59,919 bases of DNA from a virus, in UHGV virus genome UHGV-0342645. One strand, written 5' to 3'. Below, in pieces: positions 4,749-58,953 of this stretch (position 1 is the first letter of the stretch; every line of letters begins with the position of its first letter). The translations under genes and the position numbers were made by a program. The notes beneath the pieces were generated by a model. The model was not told the origin of the DNA and searched no databases. It saw only the letters and a program-made list of their open reading frames with translations.

Positions 4749-5186
4749 TTAAATTACCATTGCAATAGCGCGGTCGATCACGTCATCAGTATAAGGCATC
4801 ATGCCATTTTCATGACGAATGATTGCTTTCACCAAACCTGACATTATCGTCTTGTCGAAGACATTAATTGGATCGTTGGGTTGAACACCAATTGCTTTGG
4901 CAACAGAACGAATATACGCTTCCGTATCGTTTTCATTAGGCGGAGCCCAGCGAGCGATAATTTCACGTACAGTGTCGATGTTTCTCTTACCCACATTGGG
5001 CAAGCCTTCACGTTTGGTGTAGTTTGTCAGGACTTTCGCCAGAGCGCGGATGCCGTAGATCGGTTGCGTAAATTGCGCAAAAGATTTGTCGGTCCGCTTA
5101 TCAACAGGGACCAATCCCTGCCAATTATCACCCCAGCGAATATTACCTGGATTGTTATTACGAATACCACGAGGTTGAAGCGCCAT
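4749..5186 (-). CDS. putative endolysin (RNNNPGNIR-motif lysin / structural-protein-P5-like family)
   Basis: ATG 5186 with GGAGGA SD. The 235-aa track ORF overlaps the upstream gene and lacks an SD. 145 aa beginning MALQPRGIRNNNPGNIRWG. First gene of the lysis cassette. Confidence 0.5.
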   Translation of the reverse strand: MALQPRGIRNNNPGNIRWGDNWQGLVPVDKRTDKSFAQFTQPIYGIRALAKVLTNYTKREGLPNVGKRNIDTVREIIARWAPPNENDTEAYIRSVAKAIGVQPNDPINVFDKTIMSGLVKAIIRHENGMMPYTDDVIDRAIAMVI

Positions 5187-5268
5187 ATCGAGTTCCTCCG
5201 CTTGACATGAACCACTCAAGGGTAACAGAGAAACTTGATACGGCGCAAGGAGAATTGATCTAAGAAGA

Positions 5269-5529
5269 TTACCCGTCAAACCACTCGCCAATGTACCAGC
5301 TAACAAGACCTTTTCCACCTTTATCGACCCCGTAGCTGGAGTAAAAAGTGAAGTTATCGGGTTCGTGTTGCAGGATAACCATAAAGTCATGCTGAGTGTT
5401 GTCAATAATTGCAATAGCGATTTCCTCGTTATCTGTGATAAAGATTTCGCCACCAATTACAACATGCGTCCCGTGGTCAACTACCTTACTATGATAAGCA
5501 GGTGGGATCAGGTGACTGAATGTAGTCAT
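5269..5529 (-). CDS. hypothetical protein
   Basis: 86 aa with GAGGG SD. Abuts the upstream gene stop, in the same-strand operon. Confidence 0.6.
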   Translation of the reverse strand: MTTFSHLIPPAYHSKVVDHGTHVVIGGEIFITDNEEIAIAIIDNTQHDFMVILQHEPDNFTFYSSYGVDKGGKGLVSWYIGEWFDG

Positions 5530-5994
5530 TTAAAAACCCTCAAATGATATTGTATCAACTCCCAGGAATGCGCATGTGGTGTGTTTAATTGCTAACTCAA
5601 TAGCTTCGCTCGCACTTGCACCAGCAGCTAACGCGCCAGCAGCAAACACACAACCGCTACCCTCAGATCCCCATCCATCCAGCATGGGTTTGCTCAAAGT
5701 ACCATCATTATAAATAAAATGGCAAGTACCTTCCGGAGTAACCGCAAGACCGCAAGTTTGCCCGTAATCATCATCTTTGCTGTAAAGTTTAATATCAGGG
5801 AACTTAACAGGTTCCGCGCTATTAAAATAACGCAACACCTGATCGGTAAATGCTGTAAGGCCGCACAATCCCAGTAAAAACCGTCCACGATGTCCATTTA
5901 CGCTATGAACTTTCTTATAAGCAGTCACAGCTTCCCCGCGCATAACTCCACGGTCCGCAGCTAATACTTTTCCATCAAACGCAATTGTGGTCAT
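5530..5994 (-). CDS. HslV / proteasome beta-like Ntn-hydrolase peptidase
   Basis: MTTIAFDGKVLAADRG (Thr exposed after Met removal), a YKKV lysine at the HslV K33-like position, and GSGCVFAAGALAAGASASEAIELA matching the HslV GSG...A motif region. Confidence 0.7.
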   Translation of the reverse strand: MTTIAFDGKVLAADRGVMRGEAVTAYKKVHSVNGHRGRFLLGLCGLTAFTDQVLRYFNSAEPVKFPDIKLYSKDDDYGQTCGLAVTPEGTCHFIYNDGTLSKPMLDGWGSEGSGCVFAAGALAAGASASEAIELAIKHTTCAFLGVDTISFEGF

Positions 5995-6176
5995 TTAATT
6001 TTCCTTTGGTCTTGGATAATAACAATGCATAAAACAAATAGAATAAGACAGATACAAAGCCCTGTACTTGCAAAGATTCGGATAACCGTGGAAGGTTGTT
6101 CGACTACTGTATAGGTATAAAGCCCAGCGAACATTAACGTCGCAAATAAAAACAATCCGGCGTATAGTTTGGTCAT
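5991..6176 (-). CDS. small membrane protein (2 TM)
   Basis: 61 aa with two hydrophobic helices and a GGGG SD. 4-nt overlap with the downstream gene. Confidence 0.55.
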   Translation of the reverse strand: MTKLYAGLFLFATLMFAGLYTYTVVEQPSTVIRIFASTGLCICLILFVLCIVIIQDQRKIK

Positions 6177-6238
6177 TGTGTACCCCTCTTATTCGATGGG
6201 TACACAATACAATGAAGGGTTATGTGATAGCAAGGTTT

Positions 6239-6661
6239 TTAATTAAGCACAATCTCAACGTCTTTAACCCAAGTATGAATGATAAATGCTCCTGGCTGTT
6301 CAGGATCTTGATCCGGGCCAACGTAGAACTTTTTACCTTCCCAACCTTTAATTGGGTCATGTACAATAAACTTGTGATTAGTTGTATCGATCACAACCTG
6401 ATGCAGTGCTCCAGGAACATTGAGACTTGGGACAGTGCACAAAAACAAACCACCCATGTATATAGTCTCACGCCCACCGCCTACAGAACAGATGTGGTCA
6501 ACATTGTTTTGTACTAAATATTCGGAAATTGTTATTTCCCAGTTGTTGTAATATCGATCATGAAATTCCGCAATTACTTCTTCTACAGGTCTATTAAGGA
6601 TCATTGCTAGACACGCAGAAACGCATGTATTTAAAGAAGGTTGCTTGACGTGTTTAATCAT
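6239..6661 (-). CDS. papain-fold cysteine peptidase, C39-like
   Basis: N-terminal QPSLNTCVSACLAMIL (Q...C catalytic-Cys context of C39-type peptidases) and downstream HQVVID..HDP as candidate His/Asp. Confidence 0.5.
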   Translation of the reverse strand: MIKHVKQPSLNTCVSACLAMILNRPVEEVIAEFHDRYYNNWEITISEYLVQNNVDHICSVGGGRETIYMGGLFLCTVPSLNVPGALHQVVIDTTNHKFIVHDPIKGWEGKKFYVGPDQDPEQPGAFIIHTWVKDVEIVLN

Positions 6662-6662
6662 T

Positions 6663-7133
6663 TTACGCCTCGTATATGACTTCTGGCTCGTTATTATAAG
6701 GACGCAGCAGCAAACGCGCTACCAGCGACGTACGCTTGCTCAACCCTTGCGGATGCACAAACCCAACAAACTGGTAGTGACAACCGCGCAGGTGGTGCAA
6801 ACTCTTAGCACAATGACACGCTTCCAAACGAAGTGTCTCGCCCGACTGCCATTTAACCACAATAGTAGAGCCCGCGATCATGTTAATTTCTACGTCACCA
6901 ATATCTATTTGAAGACGTAAAAGATCTTCTACAACATTACGGACATAGACAAGGATCTGTGATGTGGGCATAACAATAAGCCCGTTCCAGTCTTTCCCGC
7001 GCCCCAAGCCGCAACGACGTGCGAATCTTGATATTAACTGAGTCTCTGTAACCTGTTTTACTTCAAACGACTTCTTCAGTTGGCAGTCTTTGGATTCGTC
7101 CATTGCATCAACAATAGTTTTAACGTCAGCCAT
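6663..7133 (-). CDS. hypothetical protein
   Basis: 156 aa with GGAG SD, tightly packed in the operon. Confidence 0.6.
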   Translation of the reverse strand: MADVKTIVDAMDESKDCQLKKSFEVKQVTETQLISRFARRCGLGRGKDWNGLIVMPTSQILVYVRNVVEDLLRLQIDIGDVEINMIAGSTIVVKWQSGETLRLEACHCAKSLHHLRGCHYQFVGFVHPQGLSKRTSLVARLLLRPYNNEPEVIYEA

Positions 7134-7136
7134 TAT

Positions 7137-7529
7137 TTACTCCGCTAATGTGTAAGGAATACCGGATGCTTTAATCTGTCTGTACATGTCCATAGTACCA
7201 GCTCCGCCCGGAAACACAATAGCGTGATCTGGTTTGGGATCAGTATCCAGCATTAATTGATTGCGGTAAGCGCCAGCTTGTGCATTATAAGCACCTCTGG
7301 CGTTATACCGTATCTTAGTATTCGGTAAGGAAAGATTGTCCCACGGCGCAGGAAACGCCTCCGTCTTAATACCGTTCCGCTCCGCCCAATGTGCGCAAAT
7401 GCGGTCAACACCGTCAGCGTCACCGTGGCGAAGTGTGGTTATCCTTCTTTGCATATGCAGCTTATCCAATTGAGCATAGATATACTCCACATTCTTAAAA
7501 TTACGACCTCCGGTAACAACTAATAGCAT
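7137..7529 (-). CDS. SLOG-superfamily DUF2493-like protein
   Basis: MLLVVTGGRNF...HGDADGVD...IVFPGGAGT. Rossmann-like GG / GDxxGxD / PGG pattern typical of DUF2493 (YspA-related SLOG). Confidence 0.55.
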   Translation of the reverse strand: MLLVVTGGRNFKNVEYIYAQLDKLHMQRRITTLRHGDADGVDRICAHWAERNGIKTEAFPAPWDNLSLPNTKIRYNARGAYNAQAGAYRNQLMLDTDPKPDHAIVFPGGAGTMDMYRQIKASGIPYTLAE

Positions 7530-11596: not shown

Positions 11597-12169
11597 ATGT
11601 CTAAAGTAACTCACCGCGAACAGGACAAAATGCGCTACACCATGAAAACGAATGCACGCCGCGCCCTTAAGACCCGTTGGGGCCAGGTTGCACGCGATGC
11701 ACACGAACAGTTAATCCATCAGGACGATATCGGTTTTTACATCGTCGAAAAGGAAGTCCTTCAGGTTCTGCGCGACCATGAAAAAGCTCAAAAGCCGGAG
11801 CAGAAAGTCCCAGCACCGACCGCCGCGCCAGCTGCCCGCGTCTCGGTACTGCGCCCGATGGTAAATCCGGAAATCGTCAAAAGCTGCCTCGAAGCTCTGG
11901 AGCAGGAGGAAGAGAAAGATATGAAACACGCAAAAGCTGCCGCACCAAAACAGGATGCAAAAGCTGCTCGCTGTGATTTCAAAAATGGCGCTCGCAAGCC
12001 GCTCAAAGGAAAAACTGCCGAAGTGTGGGCAATGGGTGACAAACTTCTGAAGGAACTGGGCCGCACGCCGGAGCTGAAAGAAATGAAAGCTGCAATGCCT
12101 TCTTACAACGGGACAACTGTTGCCATTCAGTTCTACGCCTGGCGCAAATATAACGACCTGGACGCATAA
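11597..12169 (+). CDS. hypothetical protein
   Basis: ATG 11597 with AAGGAG SD (MSKVTHREQ...). 190 aa, Lys/Ala/Glu-rich. Confidence 0.6.
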   Translation: MSKVTHREQDKMRYTMKTNARRALKTRWGQVARDAHEQLIHQDDIGFYIVEKEVLQVLRDHEKAQKPEQKVPAPTAAPAARVSVLRPMVNPEIVKSCLEALEQEEEKDMKHAKAAAPKQDAKAARCDFKNGARKPLKGKTAEVWAMGDKLLKELGRTPELKEMKAAMPSYNGTTVAIQFYAWRKYNDLDA

Positions 12170-22579: not shown

Positions 22580-23308
22580 ATGGCCATTGAAATTAAAATG
22601 TCTTCACAAGTAGTGCAAGACACAGGCGTTAAAATTCTGGTTTACGGTGAAGCGGGTATGGGTAAAACCAGCCTTGTAGCGACGCTACCTAAACCAATTT
22701 TGATCAGCGCAGAGTCCGGTCTGTTATCTATTGCAGCGGAAAACCTTAATCGCGTTTATGGTAACATGGGATTGCCGATCGTTTATGATATCCCAGTTAT
22801 TGAAGTTAAATGTCTGGAGAACGTTGAAGCTGCTTATCAGTGGTGTGTAACTCCAGCTAACCAGCAGTATTTCGATTCTATTGCGCTTGACAGCTTGAGC
22901 GAAATTGCTGAACAATGTTTAAATAATGCGAAAAAAGGAACAAAAGATCCTCGTCAAGCTTATGGTACTTTGCTTGAAAAGATGCAAGATCTGATCCGTA
23001 AATTTCGCGATATTCCTGGCAAACATGTTTATATGTCTGCTAAAATGGGCAAAGACAAAGATGAAGTCTCCGGTGTTACCGCGTATGCTCCATCTATGCC
23101 TGGGTCCAAATTGGGGCAAATGCTCCCTTATTTCTTCGACGAAGTGTTTCGTCTGAATGTAAATAAGGATCAGCAAGGTAACTCGTATCGTTACTTGCAA
23201 ACTCAACCGGACTTTAATACAATCGCTAAGGATCGTTCGGGACGTTTAGATGCGGTTGAAGTCCCACACTTAGGTTCTGTTATCAACAAAATGAAAGGTA
23301 TCAACTAA
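22580..23308 (+). CDS. Sak4-like RecA-fold ATPase (AAA_24-type recombination protein)
   Basis: Walker A GEAGMGKTS near the N-terminus. Size and position upstream of the DUF669 SSB and Cas4-like nuclease fit the family. Confidence 0.65.
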   Translation: MAIEIKMSSQVVQDTGVKILVYGEAGMGKTSLVATLPKPILISAESGLLSIAAENLNRVYGNMGLPIVYDIPVIEVKCLENVEAAYQWCVTPANQQYFDSIALDSLSEIAEQCLNNAKKGTKDPRQAYGTLLEKMQDLIRKFRDIPGKHVYMSAKMGKDKDEVSGVTAYAPSMPGSKLGQMLPYFFDEVFRLNVNKDQQGNSYRYLQTQPDFNTIAKDRSGRLDAVEVPHLGSVINKMKGIN

Positions 23309-24192
23309 TGACTATGCCAACTAATTTCCACTTTGACGCGAGCAGCTATCAAGCACCTTCTTACGGCGCATTGCCGAAAGGTTGGTATAAAGCAGTAATT
23401 GAAGCATCTGAATTTAAACCGACCAAAAATGGCGGTATGGCAATCCAGGTAACGTTTAGCATCATTGACGGTTTTGCTAAAGGTCGTAAAATCTTTGCTC
23501 GTTATAACGTCATTAACGACAACGAAGATACTGTACGCATCGCTTACGAGCAGTTGGGCGCTCTTTCCCACGCTGTAGGCGTAATTCGCTGGGATACTCC
23601 TGCTCAATTGCATAACATTCCGCTGAACCTGCGTCTGAAAGTTCGTTCTCAGGAAGGTTATGAAGACAGCAACGAGCCTAACGGTTACGCTAACATTAAC
23701 GATCCGGTTAAATATGCGGAAAAAGCAGCAGAGGCTCCATCAATGGGTGCTCCAGCAGTAGCTAACCCGTTTGGTGCAGGTGCGCCAGCACAGCAGCCAA
23801 CTTTCCCGGGCGCAGCGCCACAGCAGCCAGCAGCTAACCCGTTTGCTCAGCAACAGCAAGCACCTGTACAACAGCAAGCTCCGGTGCAGCAACAGCAGCC
23901 AGTTCAGCAGCCTGTGCAGCAGCAACCAGCACCGCAGCAGGGCACAGCAGCTCAACCGTGGCAGAATGCCGCACCGCAGCCGTGGGATAACCCTGCTCAA
24001 AACGCAGCGCTACAGCAGCCAGTTCAGCAAGCTCCGGTACAACAGCCAGTAGCGCCGGAAGCAGCTCAGCAACCGTGGGCGCAGCAGGTAGCGCAGCCGG
24101 GTCAGGCAGCGGCACCGCAGCAGCAAGCGCAGCCACAGCAGCAAGCTGAACCGCATCCGGCACAAGCCGCAGTCCCGCCGTGGCAGCAGTAA
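23308..24192 (+). CDS. DUF669-type single-stranded DNA-binding protein with long Q/P/A-rich tail
   Basis: N-terminal ALPKGWYKAVIEASEFKPTKNGG...GRKIF is the DUF669 pattern. The C-terminal ~150 aa is low complexity (QQPVQQ repeats). Confidence 0.6.
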   Translation: MTMPTNFHFDASSYQAPSYGALPKGWYKAVIEASEFKPTKNGGMAIQVTFSIIDGFAKGRKIFARYNVINDNEDTVRIAYEQLGALSHAVGVIRWDTPAQLHNIPLNLRLKVRSQEGYEDSNEPNGYANINDPVKYAEKAAEAPSMGAPAVANPFGAGAPAQQPTFPGAAPQQPAANPFAQQQQAPVQQQAPVQQQQPVQQPVQQQPAPQQGTAAQPWQNAAPQPWDNPAQNAALQQPVQQAPVQQPVAPEAAQQPWAQQVAQPGQAAAPQQQAQPQQQAEPHPAQAAVPPWQQ

Positions 24193-27827: not shown

Positions 27828-28628
27828 ATGAGCAACATTGAAGACAAAAAAGCTGCCGCCGCAGCCGCCGCTGCCGCTGCAAAATCTGCTAAACCTGCAA
27901 AGAAAGAAGCTACTGTGAATGATGCAGAAGCTAAGAAAGCCGCTGCCGCTGAAGCTGCACGCGTAGCAAAAGAGAAAAAAGAAGCAGAGAAAAAAGCTGC
28001 CGCTGAAAAGAAACAAGCTGAAATCCGCACTGAAGCGGAAAACAAATTTACCGCTCTTTCCCAGGCAGTTGAAACCGTGAAGTTTGCTTTATCTGGTATT
28101 ACCGATGAAAGCACTGTTGAACAGATTACGGAAGCAGAATCTAAGGGTTCTGAACAGCTGAAGCATTTAAAGAATGCTCTGAAAGAGCTGAAAGCAGTTG
28201 TTAAAAAATCCAAAGGTGAAGATCTGTCCGGTGCAGTGACTGCTGCTCAGAGCATGGTAGACGAACTGGATTCGTCTATTAAAGGCTTCAAAGACAAGAT
28301 CCGTGCTGCAAAACAGGCAGAAAAAGAAGCGGAAAAAGCACGCGCTAAAGAGCTCCGCGAGAAAGAAAAAGAAGCTAATCGTATGCCGGAACAGAACGGT
28401 GTTCGTCGTCCGCAACCGGAAACTTCCTGCGGTCGTGCCTGGGCTCTGATGGACCAGATTAGCGCTACGCTGGGTCAGCCTGCTCCGATCTCTTATGTTC
28501 TGAATCTGGCTGGTCGCCAGGGGCTGAACGAAGATACCGTTAAAACCCAGTATGCACGCTGGAAGAAATTTAATGGTGTAACTGGTCGCGTACCTGTACC
28601 AGTACCGGAAGCCCTGAACGGCTTGTAA
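27828..28628 (+). CDS. Ala/Lys/Glu-rich (histone-H1-like) protein with globular C-terminal domain
   Basis: ATG 27828 with GGAG SD. The N-terminal ~190 aa are AKE repeats (KKAAAAAAAAAAKSAKPAKKE...). The C-terminal ~70 aa are non-repetitive. Confidence 0.65.
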   Translation: MSNIEDKKAAAAAAAAAAKSAKPAKKEATVNDAEAKKAAAAEAARVAKEKKEAEKKAAAEKKQAEIRTEAENKFTALSQAVETVKFALSGITDESTVEQITEAESKGSEQLKHLKNALKELKAVVKKSKGEDLSGAVTAAQSMVDELDSSIKGFKDKIRAAKQAEKEAEKARAKELREKEKEANRMPEQNGVRRPQPETSCGRAWALMDQISATLGQPAPISYVLNLAGRQGLNEDTVKTQYARWKKFNGVTGRVPVPVPEALNGL

Positions 28629-38926: not shown

Positions 38927-39125
38927 GTATGTGGTTATGTATTTTGTAATTGGCGCAATTGTTGCAGCAATGACTTATTGCTTCTGTTGGGATAACTATG
39001 ATTATGCAATAGCTCATAAGAAACGTTGGGAGAAGATTGTAAGTCTTCTATGTATACTCGCTTGCTGGCCGGTCACTATTATTGCGACTGCTTATGATCA
39101 ATACATGTACAGGAGACGCAAATGA
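38919..39125 (+). CDS. membrane protein (2 TM)
   Basis: 68 aa with two hydrophobic helices. Overlaps both neighbours. Confidence 0.55.
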   Translation: MSEYVVMYFVIGAIVAAMTYCFCWDNYDYAIAHKKRWEKIVSLLCILACWPVTIIATAYDQYMYRRRK

Positions 39126-39403
39126 TGGAATATCTATTAGTTGTCGTTGCGCTATTTCTAATCATTGTTGTTATAATGACCGGAGATAGTAATGAGAAGG
39201 GCTTTACAGCAATGAGCAGGGCGTTATTACGCGCCCTTGCTGTTGCACTGCTTGGGACAAGTTTTGCTATGGCGTTTGGGGTTGTGGAGATCCCTAGCAC
39301 CTATTACGGTTTTGTTAAAGTTCAACATCAACTCACTTATGCTACCGTCGTCGGATTGGGTGCTGTAACACTTGCAATCCTGTCAGCTTTTCATAAGCGT
39401 TAA
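39122..39403 (+). CDS. membrane protein (3 TM), last gene of rightward arm
   Basis: 93 aa with three hydrophobic helices. Confidence 0.55.
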   Translation: MMEYLLVVVALFLIIVVIMTGDSNEKGFTAMSRALLRALAVALLGTSFAMAFGVVEIPSTYYGFVKVQHQLTYATVVGLGAVTLAILSAFHKR

Positions 39404-39405
39404 AG

Positions 39406-39424
39406 AAAGGGCGTTTGCCCCTTT
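39406..39424. terminator. weak hairpin at the convergence point of the two arms
   Basis: AAAGGGC-gttt-GCCCCTTT in the 28-bp gap between convergent genes. The stem is short. Confidence 0.35.
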
Positions 39425-39431
39425 TCTCTTC

Positions 39432-39635
39432 TTAGAATATACGAAAGAAAGAACCGTATGGGTATACGCCAAAAGTATTGAAAACAGGCGGTGCAAAAGC
39501 ATTCACAAACACAGGAGTTGGCGCTACTGGTTGAAAAGTTTTGCAATTACACGCCGCTTGAGCCAATTGTCCCTGAAGTATACCTGCTTGTGTTGCAGGA
39601 CTGCCTAGACAGCAACGGTTAGTATTACCACACAT
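39432..39635 (-). CDS. small Cys-rich protein with aromatic C-terminus
   Basis: 67 aa: MCGNTNRCCLG...AACNCK...FGVYPYGSFFRIF. Last gene of the leftward arm. Confidence 0.5.
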   Translation of the reverse strand: MCGNTNRCCLGSPATQAGILQGQLAQAACNCKTFQPVAPTPVFVNAFAPPVFNTFGVYPYGSFFRIF

Positions 39636-39646
39636 AGTAGACCTCC

Positions 39647-39931
39647 TTAAAGGTCGCTTTCGTTATCCTGCTTGGAACTGGGCTTTTCAGATTCAATCAT
39701 TCCAAGTACCGCAATAACTTTAACAGCAATACGCTGAGCCAGACTGATTTGCTGCTGGGTTAATTTTCCGGTCGACACCACAGTCATTAACCCGCTCAAG
39801 TTTCCAAGAGACTTGAAATCGCTGAATGCTGATTTCATAATACTAAGTTGATCATGACCTTCATCAGCTATAACATGAGCACGAATAGAAAGTCCTTCAA
39901 CAACTTTATCAATACCTTCATTCTTCGTCAT
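39647..39931 (-). CDS. hypothetical protein
   Basis: 94 aa. Overlaps the upstream gene by 14 nt. Confidence 0.55.
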   Translation of the reverse strand: MTKNEGIDKVVEGLSIRAHVIADEGHDQLSIMKSAFSDFKSLGNLSGLMTVVSTGKLTQQQISLAQRIAVKVIAVLGMIESEKPSSKQDNESDL

Positions 39932-40448
39932 TTGGTTTTACCTTCTGCTCCGGTTTCTGAGGGACCGTTTGAGCGGTCTTTGGCTGCAACACTTCCTGAT
40001 CAATCATTGGTGGCCACGGACTAATATGTTCCCGGGCTTCTACAGGTTGCTCCGGTTGCACGCCAAGAAACTTATTAATAAAATCACCTGCAAAGTCTGT
40101 ACCATCGCTGACATAAACGTGCATACGATCAAGATCAGACTGACTAATGGAGTTTGGAGCGATCGTGATTTTAAACTGGTGGAAGCCGACATACATCACA
40201 TTCACGGGTCGTTCGATAGTGCCCGGCGTAGGCGGTATCACTCCCATAATCCAACAGTAATGAACCCTTCCATCACCCATAGGTTCACAGCCAGCATTAA
40301 GCCAGCTAACCTTCTGGTGTGGGAACATGGTAGTTGAATCGGTAGCGTCCCGACGTAACGTCCAATCAACACCGCCCATGTTGATGGAGTTTTTCGGTTT
40401 CATCCCGTTGAACTGGGTTACGCCCATTCCTGCGTTTACGTTTTGCAT
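39918..40448 (-). CDS. hypothetical protein
   Basis: 176 aa with AGGAAG SD-like sequence. Confidence 0.6.
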   Translation of the reverse strand: MQNVNAGMGVTQFNGMKPKNSINMGGVDWTLRRDATDSTTMFPHQKVSWLNAGCEPMGDGRVHYCWIMGVIPPTPGTIERPVNVMYVGFHQFKITIAPNSISQSDLDRMHVYVSDGTDFAGDFINKFLGVQPEQPVEAREHISPWPPMIDQEVLQPKTAQTVPQKPEQKVKPNDEE

Positions 40449-40463
40449 GTCGGCTTCCTATTA

Positions 40464-40832
40464 TTACATATCTTTCATTTTTTGAAGAGCGCAAGTACAA
40501 GCTGCGGCAAGATCAGTCAACTCTTTCATGATCCCTGCGCGGTCGCCTTCTTTCTTACACTCCATTAATTCGCGGTATTCCATTTCAACAATGGACATCA
40601 TACCGCCGGGCTTGTCGTGGTACGCCGCCCACGTATGCGGAGGTTCTTCCATCCGGTCAAGAACATTTGACATAGCTGCCATATGTTCATGATCTCGAGC
40701 ATAAGAGTGAGCATGTTTATATTCCTCTTTCTCATGTTCATGGTGGTGCTCACCTACGCTAATTCGAGGTAAAGCAACCTTAGGCAATTTGACCCGTGGC
40801 ATTCCCATCGTTGCAATTTTAATGTGGCTCAT
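40464..40832 (-). CDS. His-rich hypothetical protein
   Basis: 122 aa. GEHHHEHEKEEYKHAHSYARDHEH tract and a C-terminal helical segment with Cys residues. Confidence 0.6.
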   Translation of the reverse strand: MSHIKIATMGMPRVKLPKVALPRISVGEHHHEHEKEEYKHAHSYARDHEHMAAMSNVLDRMEEPPHTWAAYHDKPGGMMSIVEMEYRELMECKKEGDRAGIMKELTDLAAACTCALQKMKDM

Positions 40833-40903
40833 GATAGTACCTCTGTTAAAAGCGCCCCAAGCGGAGGAGCGAAAGGCGCTTTAGTTTAACCACACTTCAA
40901 CGA

Positions 40904-41611
40904 TTAGCAGCAGCCAGTCGGAGGAGTCGGAGGGGTTGGCAGCTTAAAATTGACCAGATCATAAACCTGATCAATTTCGCAGCGAAGCTTAGCGGTCTGT
41001 GCCAGCTGGGAGTTCTGGAAGCGCGATTCCTGCAACTGAGACTTCAGGTCGCAGATAAGAACTGCTTGCGCCTGTGCGTGCTGGTCACGGATCAGCGCAC
41101 GGGTAGCTTCAGCTTGACGCTCGATGTTCAGGTTGGTTTCGCAGCAACACTTCTGAGCTTCTAACTGTGCTTGGAAAGAACGGGTGATGTTAGCCGCTTC
41201 GTTGCTACACAGAGCCGCGAGCACTTGGCTGGTGCCACCCTGAATCTGAGTGTTCAGACCGGCAAAGCCCTGAACGGAAGCCAGCAGGTTCTGAGTGTTC
41301 TGCTGAGTGATGCCATTATAGGTAGAAGCAGCGGAGCGCTCAACAGTCAGGTTAGTACCGTTCTGCCCCTGAATGGTCTGAAGAATGCCGTTGTTGATAG
41401 CTTGCAGAATTGCGTTGGTGTCAACAGAAGCTTGCACTTCTACCGGACCAGCGAAGTTACCGCGACCACCCCAACCACCATTGCCACCCCAACCATTACC
41501 GATCCAGGAACCAATTAAGCCACCGATGGCGCCACCGATACCAGCCGCACCAGCTTCACCGCCGAAGCCATCGCCACCGAGATTAGTAGGTAAAAGAGTC
41601 ATGTCAGACAT
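40904..41611 (-). CDS. Gly-rich / Gln-Asn-rich / Cys-rich protein of unknown function
   Basis: ATG 41611 with GGAGA SD (the longer track ORF lacks an SD). N-terminus GGDGFGGEAGAAGIGGAIGG...GWGGNGGWGGRG, Q/N-rich middle, 8 Cys including CCC and a C-terminal PTPPTPPTGCC. Confidence 0.65.
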   Translation of the reverse strand: MSDMTLLPTNLGGDGFGGEAGAAGIGGAIGGLIGSWIGNGWGGNGGWGGRGNFAGPVEVQASVDTNAILQAINNGILQTIQGQNGTNLTVERSAASTYNGITQQNTQNLLASVQGFAGLNTQIQGGTSQVLAALCSNEAANITRSFQAQLEAQKCCCETNLNIERQAEATRALIRDQHAQAQAVLICDLKSQLQESRFQNSQLAQTAKLRCEIDQVYDLVNFKLPTPPTPPTGCC

Positions 41612-41740
41612 AGGAAAATCTCCATATATGGATTTGTTAAGCGGATGTAACCAACTGGTTACGAAGTAAAGCATACCCCTTAACATGCTTTTTACAATGA
41701 TCCATATGTAAAGATTTTGTAAATTAGGATTGACAGCCAA

Positions 41741-41765
41741 TAAAAAGCGCGCCCGAAGACGCGCT
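41741..41765 (-). terminator. intrinsic terminator after the tail spike gene
   Basis: Minus strand AGCGCGTC-ttcg-GGCGCGCT followed by TTTTTATT. Confidence 0.75.
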
Positions 41766-41782
41766 GTTGAAGTCAGATGTGG

Positions 41783-42763
41783 TTATGGGAGAAGTTGCTC
41801 CGGTTGCTTGTTAATGAGCGTTGCTACTAGTTTTTTAAGATCTTCAACTTCTGTCTCAAGCTTAGTAATGCGATCGTCAGTTTCACGACATACCTGAACA
41901 AGCAGACCAACAATACCAGAATAGTTAACGGTAAGATAACGCGTCCCTATTTCCTTATCTTCTTCAGTGTAAACTGTCATCCCACCAACTGCTTCCGGCA
42001 ATGCTTCCATAACCTCTTGTGCGATCACACCAGAATAAGGCATTCTATCAGATTTAAGGGTATATGTGTATCCGTACATCTTGCGCAGCTTTTCGGTGGC
42101 ATTAGCGATGATTTCAATATCGGTTTTCAAGTCTCGGTCAGATCCCGCACTTACGTTATTTGCTATAATATTTCCATTTACATGAAACTCTCTTGAATTA
42201 TCACTATTACGCTGCATATAGAAGCCATAACCATTACTCCAGCTGTATTCAAATACGTCCGCACGTGTCCCGGAACCCCACATATTCAAACGACCATCCA
42301 TTGACGCTGTGCCATCATTTGCAATACGAAAACGTCTTGTGCTAAGATTTTGTTTCGGCGGAATTACAATTTCGCCATTATCATTAAAATCGTAATATAT
42401 TGAGTCACCGGCAGCGTTAACAACATTAATACGCGCGTTTATAACTCCGTCAGATCTAACCCGCACCATTTCCAGTGACGAAGCATATGTTTTTCCATCA
42501 ATATCTATACCTTGAGAGATTAATTTATAACCTGTCCCGAAGTTGCTAGATGAATCGGTCTGCTGATTCTGCGGTCGCTGTGCTGTCCAATCAGTATTCA
42601 CAATCTCCCGTGTTTCCAAGTTACCAACTTCGGACTTTAGAGTTGACACATCGGACTTCAACGTGGAGGTATCTTGCGTTAATGTTGATACTTCTCCGTT
42701 TATTGCTTCAACGTCAGTTTTAAGTTTGGTTATATCTGTTGGTATAACGGTCTTAGTCACCAT
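41783..42763 (-). CDS. tail fibre/spike protein with C-terminal S74-type intramolecular chaperone domain
   Basis: C-terminus GSDRDLKTDIE...YTYTLK...GVIAQEV...NYSGIVGLLVQ plus a coiled coil is the endosialidase/T5 pb1-type autoprocessing chaperone signature. Confidence 0.7.
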   Translation of the reverse strand: MVTKTVIPTDITKLKTDVEAINGEVSTLTQDTSTLKSDVSTLKSEVGNLETREIVNTDWTAQRPQNQQTDSSSNFGTGYKLISQGIDIDGKTYASSLEMVRVRSDGVINARINVVNAAGDSIYYDFNDNGEIVIPPKQNLSTRRFRIANDGTASMDGRLNMWGSGTRADVFEYSWSNGYGFYMQRNSDNSREFHVNGNIIANNVSAGSDRDLKTDIEIIANATEKLRKMYGYTYTLKSDRMPYSGVIAQEVMEALPEAVGGMTVYTEEDKEIGTRYLTVNYSGIVGLLVQVCRETDDRITKLETEVEDLKKLVATLINKQPEQLLP

Positions 42764-42772
42764 AACTACTCC

Positions 42773-43048
42773 TTAAGCCCATTCTCTTAGAGGTTGATCA
42801 AGAATAACACTGTGGTTACTGTACTGGGTAAAATCAAATGAGTCATCAATAACTCTTACGTTTACATAATATCCTTCATTTTGAATATATGTTGGTTCGT
42901 CTGATAGACTTTCAACTTCTGTATAGGTGTAGCCTATTACGTCAAGTAAAATCTGGTTTTGCAAAGTTTCATTGTATTCCCAATCAATAACCACAAGGAA
43001 ATCTTCAAATGCTTTCTTATCCTTAAATTTCATCGTTAAGTCTTTCAT
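42773..43048 (-). CDS. hypothetical protein (between the two fibre genes)
   Basis: 91 aa with a 4-nt overlap with the upstream fibre gene. Confidence 0.55.
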   Translation of the reverse strand: MKDLTMKFKDKKAFEDFLVVIDWEYNETLQNQILLDVIGYTYTEVESLSDEPTYIQNEGYYVNVRVIDDSFDFTQYSNHSVILDQPLREWA

Positions 43049-45183
43049 ACAGACTCCTTCATTTGACGATCTGTTAATTCTTTATGCCAGATTCTAAAGT
43101 TACGAATGTGACCGAAAAGATGACGTAGGCCGCTATTATTCTGCCCGCCAATCCTGAAGAAATAACCAGATTTAACACCGACATGATCCGTGGTTTTAGG
43201 AGTCCCATGCTGGGCATTGCTAACGAAATGCACATTACCAGATTCATTTAAAACAAATCCAAGAACAGATTTTTGTTCAAATAATACTGGCGATACGGCA
43301 ACTACTGTACTACCGTCTTTATTGTACATCGTAACACTAGGAAATAATGTTGAACTAATAGCAACACTTATATATTGACCCGGAGTTGTGCTCCCACCAC
43401 TGGTATCAAAAATTCGTGGTGCTGCATTTGGCGTTTCGTTCCAGTTTGTATGAACTTCAGCTAGAAATGTTAAAGGTGGTGTACCGATATTGTTATTTGT
43501 TGGTATATTCACCATATCACTGGCTCTTGTGACTGGCGTTTCCTCAGTAATAATAAACGAAGAAGCGCACGAACCGCCTTCGAGCTGAGGAGTTGCAACA
43601 TAAATATAATCATCTGCGCCAGTGCTTCCCCCTTTTGGTGGTGCATATTGCACCATCGCACCGATCATATTTTCTGTATCAAGTGCCTTAATTGTTGCCT
43701 CAAAGAAAATCCATTTGCTTGCTTCATTTTTAACAGCCCTTGCAGTAATACGACTTGCATCGCCGCCAGTTTTATCAATCGATAAATCTGTCATATTTAA
43801 GAAAGCATCACCCACGAATTTGTGGGTAGATCCATCATATTCTTCAAATCGTAATCGACATCTTAAATTTGGAGTCCCACTTTGTACCCTGCATGAGATA
43901 GTTACATACTTTTCATCGCCGGTAACATCATATCCTTTGCTTCCAGATACTGTGACAATAGAAAGGGATGAGGTTTGCCCCACCATTTCTGGTTTTAATG
44001 TGAATTTTGCGTACTGGAAACCAAAATCATCTACACCTGATGTATTTAAAATCATATTTGATGACTTGTTCCACTTTGATGGATTTGTGCTATTTATTAA
44101 CAGGTTTGTACGCTGCCCTTCAATCAGCAATCCATACTTTTCAAAGCGAGGTTCATCGATTGCAGCCTCTGTCAGCACACCAGATTTATTAATGTAAGTT
44201 GCTTTTGATGCACGTTTAAACTTAACAATCTTGTCACCAGGCATTGTAATTTCATCGTCATCAATTACAATCTTTTTATATGAAGGCGAAAAGCCCGTAA
44301 TCATATCTAGAGAATCGTTAAACGGTATCCACACATCAGGTAACGGCTGAATTTCTGGTGCATTGTTGGCAGCAGATTCCGCACGGTCAGCTTCCGTCTT
44401 TGCACGGTCCGCGTCGTTTTTAGCTGCGGTTGCGCTTGTGCTTGCGTTACCTGCTTGTTTTCCGGCTTCGGTAGCACTATTACCCGCTTCCGTAGCAGAA
44501 GCAGCGGCAGCGTCTTTTAAAGCGGTAGTTTCGGACACAGCGGCATCTTTAATTGCTTGCGTCTCACTTACTGCATTGTTCTTAATAGTCTGTGTATTGG
44601 ACTTTAACTTTTCAACATCCTTTTTGAGATTTGTTATTGTGGTTACAGCTTGTGTTGCAGTGTTGGCGGAACCAGCAGCACCTGCTTGTGCTTGTTTAGC
44701 TGCATCCGCGTTGGCCTTAGAATCATTCTTGTAAGTTAATGCTTGACTTGCTGAGGTTGCAGCCGCCGCTTTACTGTTACGTGCGTCCGTAGCGTCTGCG
44801 TTTGCTGCCGCAGCAGAACGTCCAGCTTGTAACGCATATTCCTCAGAGTTAGCCACAAGTCGCTGGACTTGCTTAATAACGTCCGGTGTCAACTGTTCCG
44901 GAGCCCAGTTAATCAAATAGCCGTTGAGCGAACCTTCAGGACTATCGCCATAAATAACAATTTCACCCGCTTTATAAGGCTCAATACCCTGCGGACCAAT
45001 GATCACCTTATAATGGCCTGTTTGTACGGTTACATTGTACGCACCTTCCCCGTCTGTGCGGAATATTGCTTCACTTCCGTTCAATACCGTAATTGTATTT
45101 CCTTTTGCAATAAGCGCAACCGTAGCGTTGATAATTGGCTTATTCAAACCATCCAGCAAGATACCGTGCAAGCGCGTAGCCAT
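43045..45183 (-). CDS. side tail fibre protein (lambda Stf-like N-terminus)
   Basis: ATG 45183 with GGAG SD. N-terminus MATRLHGILLDGLNKPIINATVALIAKGNT...GHYKVII resembles the prophage tail-fibre N-terminal domain of lambda Stf. Ala-rich coiled-coil segment. Confidence 0.7.
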   Translation of the reverse strand: MATRLHGILLDGLNKPIINATVALIAKGNTITVLNGSEAIFRTDGEGAYNVTVQTGHYKVIIGPQGIEPYKAGEIVIYGDSPEGSLNGYLINWAPEQLTPDVIKQVQRLVANSEEYALQAGRSAAAANADATDARNSKAAAATSASQALTYKNDSKANADAAKQAQAGAAGSANTATQAVTTITNLKKDVEKLKSNTQTIKNNAVSETQAIKDAAVSETTALKDAAAASATEAGNSATEAGKQAGNASTSATAAKNDADRAKTEADRAESAANNAPEIQPLPDVWIPFNDSLDMITGFSPSYKKIVIDDDEITMPGDKIVKFKRASKATYINKSGVLTEAAIDEPRFEKYGLLIEGQRTNLLINSTNPSKWNKSSNMILNTSGVDDFGFQYAKFTLKPEMVGQTSSLSIVTVSGSKGYDVTGDEKYVTISCRVQSGTPNLRCRLRFEEYDGSTHKFVGDAFLNMTDLSIDKTGGDASRITARAVKNEASKWIFFEATIKALDTENMIGAMVQYAPPKGGSTGADDYIYVATPQLEGGSCASSFIITEETPVTRASDMVNIPTNNNIGTPPLTFLAEVHTNWNETPNAAPRIFDTSGGSTTPGQYISVAISSTLFPSVTMYNKDGSTVVAVSPVLFEQKSVLGFVLNESGNVHFVSNAQHGTPKTTDHVGVKSGYFFRIGGQNNSGLRHLFGHIRNFRIWHKELTDRQMKESV

Positions 45184-45201
45184 AATTTCTCCCACATTTA
45201 A

Positions 45202-57891: not shown

Positions 57892-58953
57892 TTAGGAACC
57901 CTGATACTCACGAGTGATCAGGCGTGCGACTTTAAGCTGCTTGCGCTCAAGGAACGCACGACGCCAGGAATCTTCATGGGCCAGGTTGTTAGTGGTAGCA
58001 GCGTTAGACGGACCACCTTTAGCAGTTTGGGCAGCAGCCCAAGCATGACCGACCGGATGCAGAATCCATTCAACACGGTTGTGAAGAACTTCTTCACCAG
58101 CACCATTGTTAGCAGCTTCGTCACGAACCACAGCGGTCGGAACTTTTGGTGAACCAGCACCCATTGCAGTCGCGCCCGGGCCGAACAGCCAGCTTTCAAA
58201 GATACCAGTAGACGGATCGTGCGGCATGGAGTCGTCTTCAATAATACGCAAACCCTGATAATACTCGAACTGAGTTTCACCGCGAGCATCCGGAATGAAG
58301 TCGATCAGGTTCAGCTGACGCATACGATTACGAACGGTAGAGTGTACCATAATCATGGTCAGACCACGAGCAGCATCACCCATCGTTGCAGTTGCGTTGA
58401 TGAAGTTAGACGCGGTAAAGTTGGTCTGGTTGTTTACAAATGAAGAACCGGAAATATCGAACGTCAGATCGTCCGAATGGGATTTCTTGGCATTAGCAAA
58501 TACACCTTTCCAGGTTGCAATGTATGCAGCTTGCAGACGGCGAACCCACCACGCAGACACGCGATTACCGATAGCGGTCATTGGGTCGTTACCAATCAAA
58601 GCAGATACCAGATCCGCAGAACCCCAGGATTTTGAGCGACTCATACGAACCTGAACTTCAGATCCGGTAGTGATGTTTGACGGTTTGGACGGAGCACCTT
58701 TATCGATCGCAATATCTTCGTCTTCGTCTTTCAGGTCATTATAGAACGGCTCGTTAAAAGTCAAACCTGCACCAGCAAGGTTAGCAGATAAACGCTCGTC
58801 CATTACAACTGCACCGGATTGAATCAGAGCAGAAAGTTCAGCGGTCTGCGTCTGCACATAACCAGTGAAGATTTCAGGGACGATCACGTCAGCCAAACGA
58901 GTCAGGTCACTGTCACCACGACCAAATGGCAGAATAATTTTAGATTTAGACAT
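57892..58953 (-). CDS. major capsid protein
   Basis: 353 aa with AGGAGA-type SD, after the scaffold-like gene and followed by a strong terminator. Size and order fit HK97-fold capsid proteins. Confidence 0.8.
   Translation of the reverse strand: MSKSKIILPFGRGDSDLTRLADVIVPEIFTGYVQTQTAELSALIQSGAVVMDERLSANLAGAGLTFNEPFYNDLKDEDEDIAIDKGAPSKPSNITTGSEVQVRMSRSKSWGSADLVSALIGNDPMTAIGNRVSAWWVRRLQAAYIATWKGVFANAKKSHSDDLTFDISGSSFVNNQTNFTASNFINATATMGDAARGLTMIMVHSTVRNRMRQLNLIDFIPDARGETQFEYYQGLRIIEDDSMPHDPSTGIFESWLFGPGATAMGAGSPKVPTAVVRDEAANNGAGEEVLHNRVEWILHPVGHAWAAAQTAKGGPSNAATTNNLAHEDSWRRAFLERKQLKVARLITREYQGS

Follow-up and report, generated by a model that had tools for sequence, protein, structure and literature searches.

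A block of five minus-strand genes, which we call P1 to P5, lies at positions 39432–41611 of UHGV-0342645, a Seuratvirus (Queuovirinae) genome of ~60 kb that was analysed over its whole length (the window; all numbering below is in window positions). Judged by sequence comparison, P1 to P4 constitute a defined, mobile unit of four genes under its own control, centred on P1, a protein predicted to be very highly expressed, and the products of all five genes match nothing of known function. The block is very probably a portable, separately transcribed accessory operon of moron-like design, with P1-P2-P3-P4 as its core and P5 as a lineage-specific part. Following the definition of a moron as an element with its own promoter, its own terminator, a deviant base composition, and a patchy distribution (PMC3594210), we base this reading on the promoter and terminators of the cassette, the base composition of P1, and the scattered occurrence of the set among phages. 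A first-pass annotation of the window had proposed a self-contained accessory system under separate regulation; gene order, promoter, stem-loop, hairpin, and deletions speak for this in the case of P1–P4, and P5 is a lineage-restricted add-on.

The five open reading frames (ORFs) listed in Table 1 lie where that annotation had placed them and are bracketed by two terminators. The peptide features it quoted are also exact, namely the eight Cys of P1, the His/Glu tract of P2, and the P5 start MCGNTNRCCLG. The cassette region is 94–97% identical to that of the E. coli phages KS_A8, CAjan, slur01, and SeppeHuegi. Each product matches a separate PHROG of unknown function, with E-values from 1e-47 to 1e-127 (phrog_9288 for P1, E 1.5e-127; phrog_9157 for P2; phrog_7239 for P4); since, in addition, P1–P4 recur at 40–67% identity across unrelated phage families and P5 is kept in Sashavirus, the comparisons indicate that P1–P5 are real genes rather than chance ORFs. 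For P1 the ATG at 41611 is supported as the start: GGAG lies 8 nt upstream, and the frame opens with a family-wide N-terminus, MSDMTLLP. Scans of P1–P5 against Pfam, NCBIfam, and PADLOC, the last of which covers defence-system and not anti-defence proteins, yielded nothing above curated cut-offs, and the PHROGs returned only families of unknown function. In annotated relatives all five are "hypothetical," save that the BASEL genomes label P2 a "putative pyrophosphatase"; there is no discussion of the five genes in the BASEL paper.

Searches of phage records with tblastn retrieved P1 from 180 and P3 from 141. A synteny survey, which the first-pass annotation had recommended, found P1-P2-P3-P4 in unchanged order in six phage lineages or more, which span Queuovirinae, Tempevirinae, Sashavirus/9NA, Eiauvirus, and PY100-like Yersinia myoviruses. 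At 40–67% amino acid identity, the order is kept in JakobBernoulli (Drexlerviridae, Tempevirinae) and Edwardsiella phage eiAU (Eiauvirus), both of which retain a 14-nt overlap of P3 and P4; it also occurs in Nonagvirus JenP2, Salmonella phage Sasha, Yersinia phage X1, and the myovirus PY100 (ORF29–32). In IMG/VR, P2-P3-P4 follow P1 in ~40 loci. P4 homologues come after P3 in 43 loci. Among 80 IMG/VR loci, those with a P1 at least 48% identical have P2-P3-P4 downstream in all cases but one, the rearranged locus of phage 2019SD1 (L043), in which P3 and P4 are on the opposite strand and P2 was not detected. The position of the cassette varies: it follows the lateral tail fibres in Queuovirinae, Tempevirinae, and Eiauvirus; in Sashavirus and 9NA its neighbours are the terminase and small genes; in PY100 and X1 it is surrounded by non-structural genes, with dam and ssb nearby; and in Hanrivervirus it stands between fibre and ssb genes. 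In the T1-like phage Sfin-1 the fibre gene directly joins the convergent gene block, with no cassette at that site, and vB_EcoS-95 appears cassette-less, judged from its gene numbering.

Across 185,579 bacterial and archaeal species, each represented by one genome, a scan turned up no close relative, so that the close form appears restricted to genomes of free phages; its carriers have been described or classified as virulent phages. A piece of ~300 nt, window positions 41484–41782, which holds the P1 5′ end and the promoter, recurs at 85–94% nucleotide identity in otherwise unrelated T5-like (Gostya9, PNJ1902, and Kenya-K36, K38, K42, and K45) and Nonagvirus (FritzHoffmann and ChristophMerian) genomes. 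This degree of identity suggests that the promoter and the N-terminal part alone were exchanged horizontally, and recently. Three unannotated records labelled "Campylobacter phage" (A15b, MG065637; A118, MG065675; A16a, MG065636), two of ~50 kb and one of 22 kb, carry the cassette at an identity equal to that of Hanrivervirus coliphages; they look like T1-like coliphage sequences, and their host label is doubtful.

We read a sigma70-type promoter from the sequence upstream of P1 (Table 1); a consensus promoter scan of the window did not have it among its matches. Pairs of −35 and −10 boxes in the same register occur in other lineages (e.g., TTGCGA/TATGCT, TTGGCA/TATTCT, and TTGTCA/TAGAAT), and in Sasha and X1 the pair sits in a divergent intergenic region, where a promoter must exist. 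The cassette is thus predicted to carry its own sigma70-like promoter, conserved in position across lineages. Upstream of it is the motif TTTACAAAA, and in Nonagvirus, T5-like, and Tempevirinae loci related (T)TTACAAA motifs are similarly placed ahead of P1. The terminator that the first-pass annotation had seen closing the fibre genes was recovered by a terminator scan (41746–41765) and by folding, and its view that the gene set ends the arm agrees with a bidirectional terminator at 39405–39425 that faces the convergent replication genes.

Just past the −10 box is a palindrome, GTAACCAGTTGGTTAC, predicted to form a stem-loop at or near the 5′ end of the P1 mRNA. The stem differs in other lineages yet still pairs (GTAGC/GCTAC, GTGGC/GCCAC, GTAGTC/GACTAC, and GCGAAC/GTTCGC), and two lineages have G-U wobbles in it. 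In a 15-lineage alignment, 92% of cells pair and both sides have changed in four of the six pairs; the covariation score is 0.362, compared with 0.217 ± 0.033 after shuffling (reached in 0 of 500 shuffles) and at most 0.124 in slid controls. The position and the wobble pairs favour an RNA stem-loop over a DNA operator. Stem-loops of this kind at 5′ ends are known to stabilise mRNAs. In several lineages (loci L006, L009, L015, and L021), the bases that overlap and follow the −10 box (CTCTTTG or CTCCTGT) complement the P1 Shine-Dalgarno region (CAAAGAG or ACAGGAG); given this complementarity, transcripts reading through from upstream might mask the P1 ribosome site, and those initiated at the promoter would not.

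A second RNA element, a GC-rich hairpin, directly follows the P1 stop codon. It is present in every lineage examined except at locus L039, is followed by a T-run in most, and is annotated as a terminator in SA80RD and Sasha. It is likely a partial terminator or a 3′ stabiliser that lowers the expression of P2–P5 relative to P1. An Rfam match to ar14, an alphaproteobacterial small RNA, at 40847–40950 on the minus strand, overlapping this hairpin, was at chance level (23.9 bits against a cut-off of 58.8, E 0.094) and was rejected.

Codon usage sets P1 apart. Its frequency of E. coli optimal codons (Fop) is 0.770, the highest of the 68 ORFs in the window (mean 0.543), compared with 0.743 for the likely capsid gene (ORF 57892–58953, picked because its length equals that of the annotated SeppeHuegi capsid gene) and 0.51–0.54 for P2–P5. 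Base composition is likewise distinctive for P1 and not for P2–P5: the GC content is 54.1% in P1, 40–48% in P2–P5, 41–43% in the fibre genes, and 37–51% in 1-kb windows of the genome. Given the promoter, the 5′ stem-loop, the hairpin after P1, and the extreme codon optimisation of P1 alone, P1 should be made in large excess over P2–P5, as one abundant subunit with helpers at a low level. In the pap and fim operons, the gene of the major subunit comes first and a hairpin after it sets the ratio of subunit to helpers. The cassette resembles them in that P1 is first, predicted to be strongly expressed, and bracketed by hairpins, with downstream helpers of ordinary codon usage, but it lacks export signals and any homology to chaperones, ushers, or pilins, and the likeness is one of regulation only. 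Elsewhere in the window, three plus-strand ORFs of the replication arm (27828–28628, 23308–24192, and 11597–12169) have Fop values of 0.70–0.76, near those of P1 and the likely capsid gene, and by this codon bias they too are probably very highly expressed.

The cassette is frequently damaged or lost. Among 31 distinct Seuratvirus isolates, 12 have deletions that remove part or most of it from either end, and SeppeHuegi has a stop codon in P1. In phage Seurat the P3 end is the sole remnant, and 9NA has lost P1, P2, and the start of P3. Since these are viable isolates, the cassette is dispensable; many of the deletion-carrying phages were isolated on K-12 laboratory strains. T5-like Epseptimavirus genomes hold a lone, decaying P1 copy, which in Salmonella phage vaffelhjerte (positions 4752–5342 of locus L005) is split into two ORFs, its CCCETN motif having degenerated to YCCETS, and appears to be a pseudogene.

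A natural in-frame deletion is that of KurtStettler (positions 5607–7139 of locus L002; window 41560–42763), which fuses the Peptidase_S74 chaperone domain of the fibre in frame to P1 (junction LLVQVCRE followed by AGAAGIGGAIGG, that is, VCRE|AGAAGIGG) and thereby removes the terminator, the promoter, and the first 20 P1 codons. The 510-aa product is annotated as a "putative lateral tail fiber chaperone." This label and the position of the cassette after the fibre genes would suit a set of assembly chaperones for the adjacent lateral fibre, an idea that is largely refuted and that we hold to be scarcely credible: the label reflects the S74 domain of the fibre and not P1, Sasha, 9NA, PY100, and X1 carry the cassette without adjacent fibres, and cassette-less phages still plate. 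Scans of Pfam, PHROGs, and NCBIfam linked the set to none of the known fibre-assembly families. Homology to known fibre chaperones or structural proteins, which the first-pass annotation had said would count against an accessory system, was found neither in these libraries nor in profile searches of the Protein Data Bank (PDB).

P1 opens with a perfect glycine zipper of three GxxxG repeats (GIGGAIGGLIGSWIG) and a Gly/Trp-rich tract, continues with a Gln/Asn-rich middle that contains repeated QG(F/Q)xGxN motifs, and ends in a Pro/Thr-rich tail (KLPTPPTPPTGCC). Its eight Cys are at positions 135, 155–157, 187, 211, 234, and 235; in the family alignment CCC155–157 (within CCCETN) and C187 are invariant, LICDLK is conserved, and C211 occurs solely alongside the terminal GCC. 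AlphaFold2 modelled one helix over residues 65–220. By sequence reading P1 has neither a lipobox nor a signal peptide; it matched nothing in Pfam at E up to 1 and, by profile search, none of the PDB sequences. The segments IQGQNGTN and VQGFAGLNT resemble the Q-x-G-x-G-N pattern of curlin; a Curlin repeat amyloid subunit was rejected as a candidate, with no match of P1 to Pfam Curlin_rpt at E up to 1. The repeated GxxxG recalls the glycine zipper 2TM family (PF05433, Rick_17kDa_Anti), which comprises SlyB/Pcp-type outer-membrane lipoproteins, but the window P1 has no Pfam match, lipobox, or signal peptide, and the remainder of the protein is unrelated.

When 1.84 billion representative proteins were searched exhaustively by profile, only 116 cluster representatives emerged as relatives of P1. 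Nearly all are stand-alone proteins of the same layout, full-length ones being ~200–290 aa, and there are shorter fragments; one outlier is a weak match to a 558-aa protein without Cys. The distant relatives belong to gut phages and prophages of Clostridia, Negativicutes, and Treponema and have a hydrophobic helix (KD19 1.7–2.0) in place of the zipper, and one of them matches the Pfam glycine zipper 2TM domain (E 0.004). Gut prophages carry the P1-like gene at their end, past the holin and endolysin genes, and after it come genes for a BclA_C/C1q-like protein (E 1.5e-7, below the Pfam cut-off) and a DUF7841 protein. This module is a sister system of the cassette. Three such loci (L096, L100, and L110) share the order holin/endolysin, a small helix-turn-helix or sigma-like protein, a Gln/Pro-rich protein of ~150 aa, one of ~77 aa, the P1-like protein, the BclA_C/C1q-like protein, and the DUF7841 protein, after which host genes begin. 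P2-like genes were detected in the distant loci L046, L103, and L104 by hidden Markov model (HMM; E 5e-5 to 2e-4). A Mailhella locus and a high-GC locus have a P1-like and a P2-like gene, and the next two genes are sized like P3 and P4; HMM detected no similarity of these two to P3 or P4, so that the agreement is in size and position only.

For the function of the cassette we lean, with low confidence, toward an assembly at the host envelope, possibly serving superinfection exclusion, rather than a part of the virion. This leaning rests on the portability of the cassette across virion types, its host-type promoter, the hydrophobic P1 relatives, and the cargo position of the prophage module. 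P1 would be made in bulk, and its glycine-zipper N-terminus would insert into or bind the host cytoplasmic membrane. The ~23-nm helical region, the CCC cluster and other Cys, and the Pro/Thr-rich tail could then give rise to an oligomeric envelope layer, cross-linked or metal-linked. P2, P3, and P4 are probably cytoplasmic, since no signal peptide or transmembrane segment was found in them by sequence reading, and might aid the folding, maturation, or assembly of P1. The benefit would be conditional and independent of virion type, most likely superinfection exclusion or else another conditioning of the envelope; a benefit of this sort would let the cassette move between sipho- and myoviruses and would explain its frequent loss in laboratory isolates. 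Superinfection exclusion is the best-known role of such elements.

Several observations weigh against an envelope role. The cassette adjoins lateral tail-fibre genes in four lineages, which also fits a role in the virion, and natural deletion variants fuse it to fibre genes. The AlphaFold2 model of P1 is of low confidence (mean predicted local distance difference test score, pLDDT, 62; predicted template modelling score, pTM, 0.26), so that a coiled-coil rod is insecure, and the heptad pattern is weak, with hydrophobic a/d positions at 0.50–0.75. The P1 zipper has a KD19 of 1.27, under the usual cut-off of ~1.6 for a transmembrane helix. An even-number bias of Cys is absent (54–55% even), and hence nothing argues for periplasmic disulfides. 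The exclusion proteins known to us act singly, as small proteins or lipoproteins, and a set of four genes that includes cytoplasmic helpers would be without precedent among them. A search of the literature on glycine-zipper phage exclusion proteins found nothing related. A broader reading, which we consider doubtful, is that the cassette may represent a new phage-borne assembly system whose mass-produced subunit, composed of zipper, long helix, and CCC, would polymerise or cross-link at the host envelope or on released particles. Three dedicated helpers, the new-fold P3 among them, would mature this subunit, virulent sipho- and myoviruses would exchange the whole as a unit, and the sister module (P1-like, C1q/BclA-like, and DUF7841 proteins) would travel as cargo at gut prophage ends.

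The outline of P1 also invites comparison with the spanins. Like lambda Rz/Rz1, it combines an N-terminal hydrophobic or zipper segment as a possible anchor, a predicted helix of about the length needed to span the periplasm (155 residues × 0.15 nm, ~23 nm), Cys, and a Pro-rich end, and the P1-like gene of gut prophages lies just past holin and endolysin. P1 could on these grounds act in auxiliary lysis or envelope disruption, as a spanin-type protein anchored in the inner membrane and crossing the periplasm or as a regulator of lysis timing. We consider this very unlikely. The phage has bona fide spanins; in SeppeHuegi the genes for endolysin, holin, i-spanin, and o-spanin are annotated at the opposite genome end. 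P1 has no similarity to spanins and no lipoprotein partner in the cassette. In enterobacterial phages the cassette never adjoins lysis genes, and homologues exist in phages assigned to monoderm Clostridia.

The other cassette proteins gave few clues to activity. P2 consists of a variable His/Asp/Glu-rich N-terminal tract, which is not conserved in the family alignment, and a conserved 65-aa helical C-terminal domain (PPxTW...IVEMEYxELM...KELTDLAAAC). The family is weakly MazG-like: P2 scored 16.0 bits against PRA-PH (cut-off 21.3), eight of 33 family members match PRA-PH (best E 0.0011) and three of 33 match MazG (best E 0.043), and these matches span about half a domain. The likeness lies in two conserved helices with acidic motifs of the ExxE...ExxD type (EYRELME...KELTD); E89-x-x-E92 and E104-x-x-D107 fall within the conserved IVEMEYxELM...KELTDL, in which E88, E104, and D107 are invariant. 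The differences are the score below the gathering cut-off, the half domain, and the variable low-complexity N-terminal half. A profile search of all PDB sequences with P2 gave a spurious match to PA2G4 and no MazG structure among its matches.

P3, the best conserved protein of the cassette, has an alpha+beta domain with conserved His, Cys, and Asp and a disordered Pro/Gln/Glu/Lys tail. Its predicted fold is confident and has no solved-structure match, and a profile search of all PDB sequences returned nothing; as modelled, P3 is a new fold. A PHROG "tail fiber" match to residues 114–176 was set aside and attributed to the deletion junction of phage Seurat, in which the equivalent of these residues is covered by a match with the annotation "tail fiber protein" and by a hypothetical protein. 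P4 is small and helical by sequence reading. Its start overlaps the P3 end by 14 nt, as it does in Tempevirinae, Eiauvirus, and Sashavirus, and this overlap suggests translational coupling of P3 and P4.

P5 has a Cys-rich N-terminus, a PATQxGxLQxQ motif, and an aromatic, Pro-rich C-terminus, and AAGGAGG lies 7 nt ahead of its ATG. It was found by tblastn in 33 phage records, all Seuratvirus as far as taxonomy was checked, and a P5-like ORF of 42–45% identity follows P4 in Sashavirus (local tblastn with the low-complexity filter off); by these searches P5 is a lineage-specific addition of Seuratvirus and Sashavirus only. Two suggestions of the first-pass annotation about P5 did not survive: its C-terminus does not fit the beta-signal pattern as we read that motif, and P5 lacks a signal peptide; its similarity to P1 is not significant (Smith-Waterman score 35 against 26 ± 4 for shuffles, p about 0.045), and a paralogue of the P1 C-terminus was rejected accordingly. 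None of the five proteins has a lipobox by sequence reading.

Some of these features are compatible with a cytoplasmic function in host takeover or anti-defence, with P1 as an abundant soluble scaffold, sponge, or condensate-forming protein, P2 as a MazG-like pyrophosphatase, and P3 as an enzyme of new fold. A host-type promoter would permit expression without phage factors; P1 (Gly/Trp and Gln/Asn), P2, and P3 contain disordered low-complexity segments; P3 has its conserved His, Cys, and Asp; the PRA-PH/MazG matches of P2, though weak, go with its BASEL label; and the cassette is dispensable on K-12 laboratory strains. Against this, the link of P2 to MazG covers half a domain at 16 versus 21.3 bits and the His/acidic tract is unconserved, known sponges and inhibitors are single genes, and the hydrophobic helices of distant P1 relatives point to a membrane. 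The lack of PADLOC matches counts little, as that library covers defence and not anti-defence. We regard such a function as quite improbable.

A place in the virion is a more serious competitor of the envelope role, though unlikely in our estimate. A P1 trimer would form a thin, Cys-cross-linked helical fibre or decoration, attached with the help of P2–P4; like the head fibres, whiskers, and decoration proteins known from other phages, it would not be needed in the laboratory. The cassette follows the lateral fibres on the same strand in Queuovirinae, Tempevirinae, Eiauvirus, and the Mailhella phage; P1 has a codon bias at the level of the likely capsid gene; distant P1-like genes precede the gene of a BclA_C/C1q-like protein, a domain typical of fibre tips; and KurtStettler is viable with a fibre S74 domain fused in frame to P1. 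This reading is weakened by the location of the cassette away from tail and other structural genes in Sashavirus, 9NA, and the PY100-like phages PY100 and X1. Unrelated sipho- and myovirus virions share the cassette, yet conservation is highest in P3, the obvious candidate for an adaptor. A true hydrophobic helix is present in distant P1 relatives, and none of the solved phage particle proteins came up in PDB profile searches. As weak evidence, PY100 ORF29–32 have no structural label in a record that labels head, tail, and fibre genes. Publications on 9g, eiAU, and P400 contain no virion mass spectrometry.

Morons and receptor-masking genes are also among the known systems close to the cassette. 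The HK97 gene 15 moron encodes gp15, a superinfection-exclusion protein of the inner membrane (PMC3594210). The cassette is likewise an independent unit with its own promoter and terminator, in or beside a tail operon, with a deviant GC content in P1, horizontal spread, absence from close relatives, and a related module at prophage ends. It differs in having four or five genes and not one, in its large and very highly expressed P1, in being carried mainly by virulent phages, and so not expressed from a repressed prophage, and in lacking sequence similarity to gp15 or YebO. T5 Llp is a receptor-masking lipoprotein encoded beside receptor-binding genes. Cor of T1/phi80 is also a receptor-masking lipoprotein encoded beside such genes (PMC3594210). 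The cassette shares with these two its separate expression, its dispensability in the laboratory, and its place beside fibre or receptor-binding genes of virulent siphoviruses; unlike them, which are single small lipoproteins, P1–P5 have no lipobox and no similarity to either.

Most accessory genes of virulent phages are single orphans, whereas the cassette joins four genes into a defined unit that brings regulatory signals of its own, and it is shared by coliphages of model size (CAjan, the BASEL Queuovirinae and Tempevirinae, 9NA relatives, and PY100). Tuning of P1 to capsid level, dispensability, and frequent deletion together suggest a costly function that pays under certain conditions, for which phage competition, protection of the infected cell, and particle stability outside the laboratory are candidates; the natural deletion variants can be used as controls. 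Were the envelope-assembly or exclusion reading true, a field whose known examples are mostly single small proteins would gain a mechanism that involves several, and five PHROG families and one new fold would acquire a function; were the cassette a virion decoration, a recurrent block beside lateral tail fibres would be explained. The covarying stem-loop, at the predicted start of the mRNA, provides a compact element for expression that may be reusable.

Table 1. Genes and predicted regulatory elements of the P1–P5 cassette (window positions; −, minus strand;., both strands).
Feature	Position	Strand	Details
Intrinsic terminator closing the tail-fibre genes	41741..41765	-	stem 41746-41765, then T-run; 8-bp stem, 6 GC pairs; -14.1 kcal/mol
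TTTACAAAA motif upstream of P1 promoter	41715..41723	-	one copy in window
Predicted sigma70-type promoter	41670..41697	-	-35 TTGTAA 41692-41697; 16-nt spacer; -10 TATGCT 41670-41675; read from sequence
Predicted stem-loop GTAACCAGTTGGTTAC	41647..41662	-	7 nt past -10 box; palindrome, one copy in window
P1	40904-41611	-	235 aa from ATG; mechanical ORF extends to TTG at 41740
GC-rich hairpin AGCGCC...GGCGCT + four T, directly past P1 stop	40847..40880	-	about -15 to -17 kcal/mol
P2	40464-40832	-	122 aa
P3	39918-40448	-	176 aa
P4	39647-39931	-	94 aa
P5	39432-39635	-	67 aa
Bidirectional terminator, cassette versus convergent plus-strand replication genes	39405..39425	.	scan match; minus-strand fold -12.0 kcal/mol

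Upstream of the cassette, the minus-strand fibre block at 41783–45195 encodes a 716-aa fibre, a 91-aa protein (phrog_1361), and a 326-aa fibre piece that ends in a self-cleaving Peptidase_S74 chaperone domain (E 2.8e-14); the fibre alleles at this site differ among relatives. On the other side, the final gene of the convergent arm (39122–39403, plus strand) encodes a 93-aa protein with hydrophobic stretches resembling membrane segments and ends at the shared bidirectional terminator.

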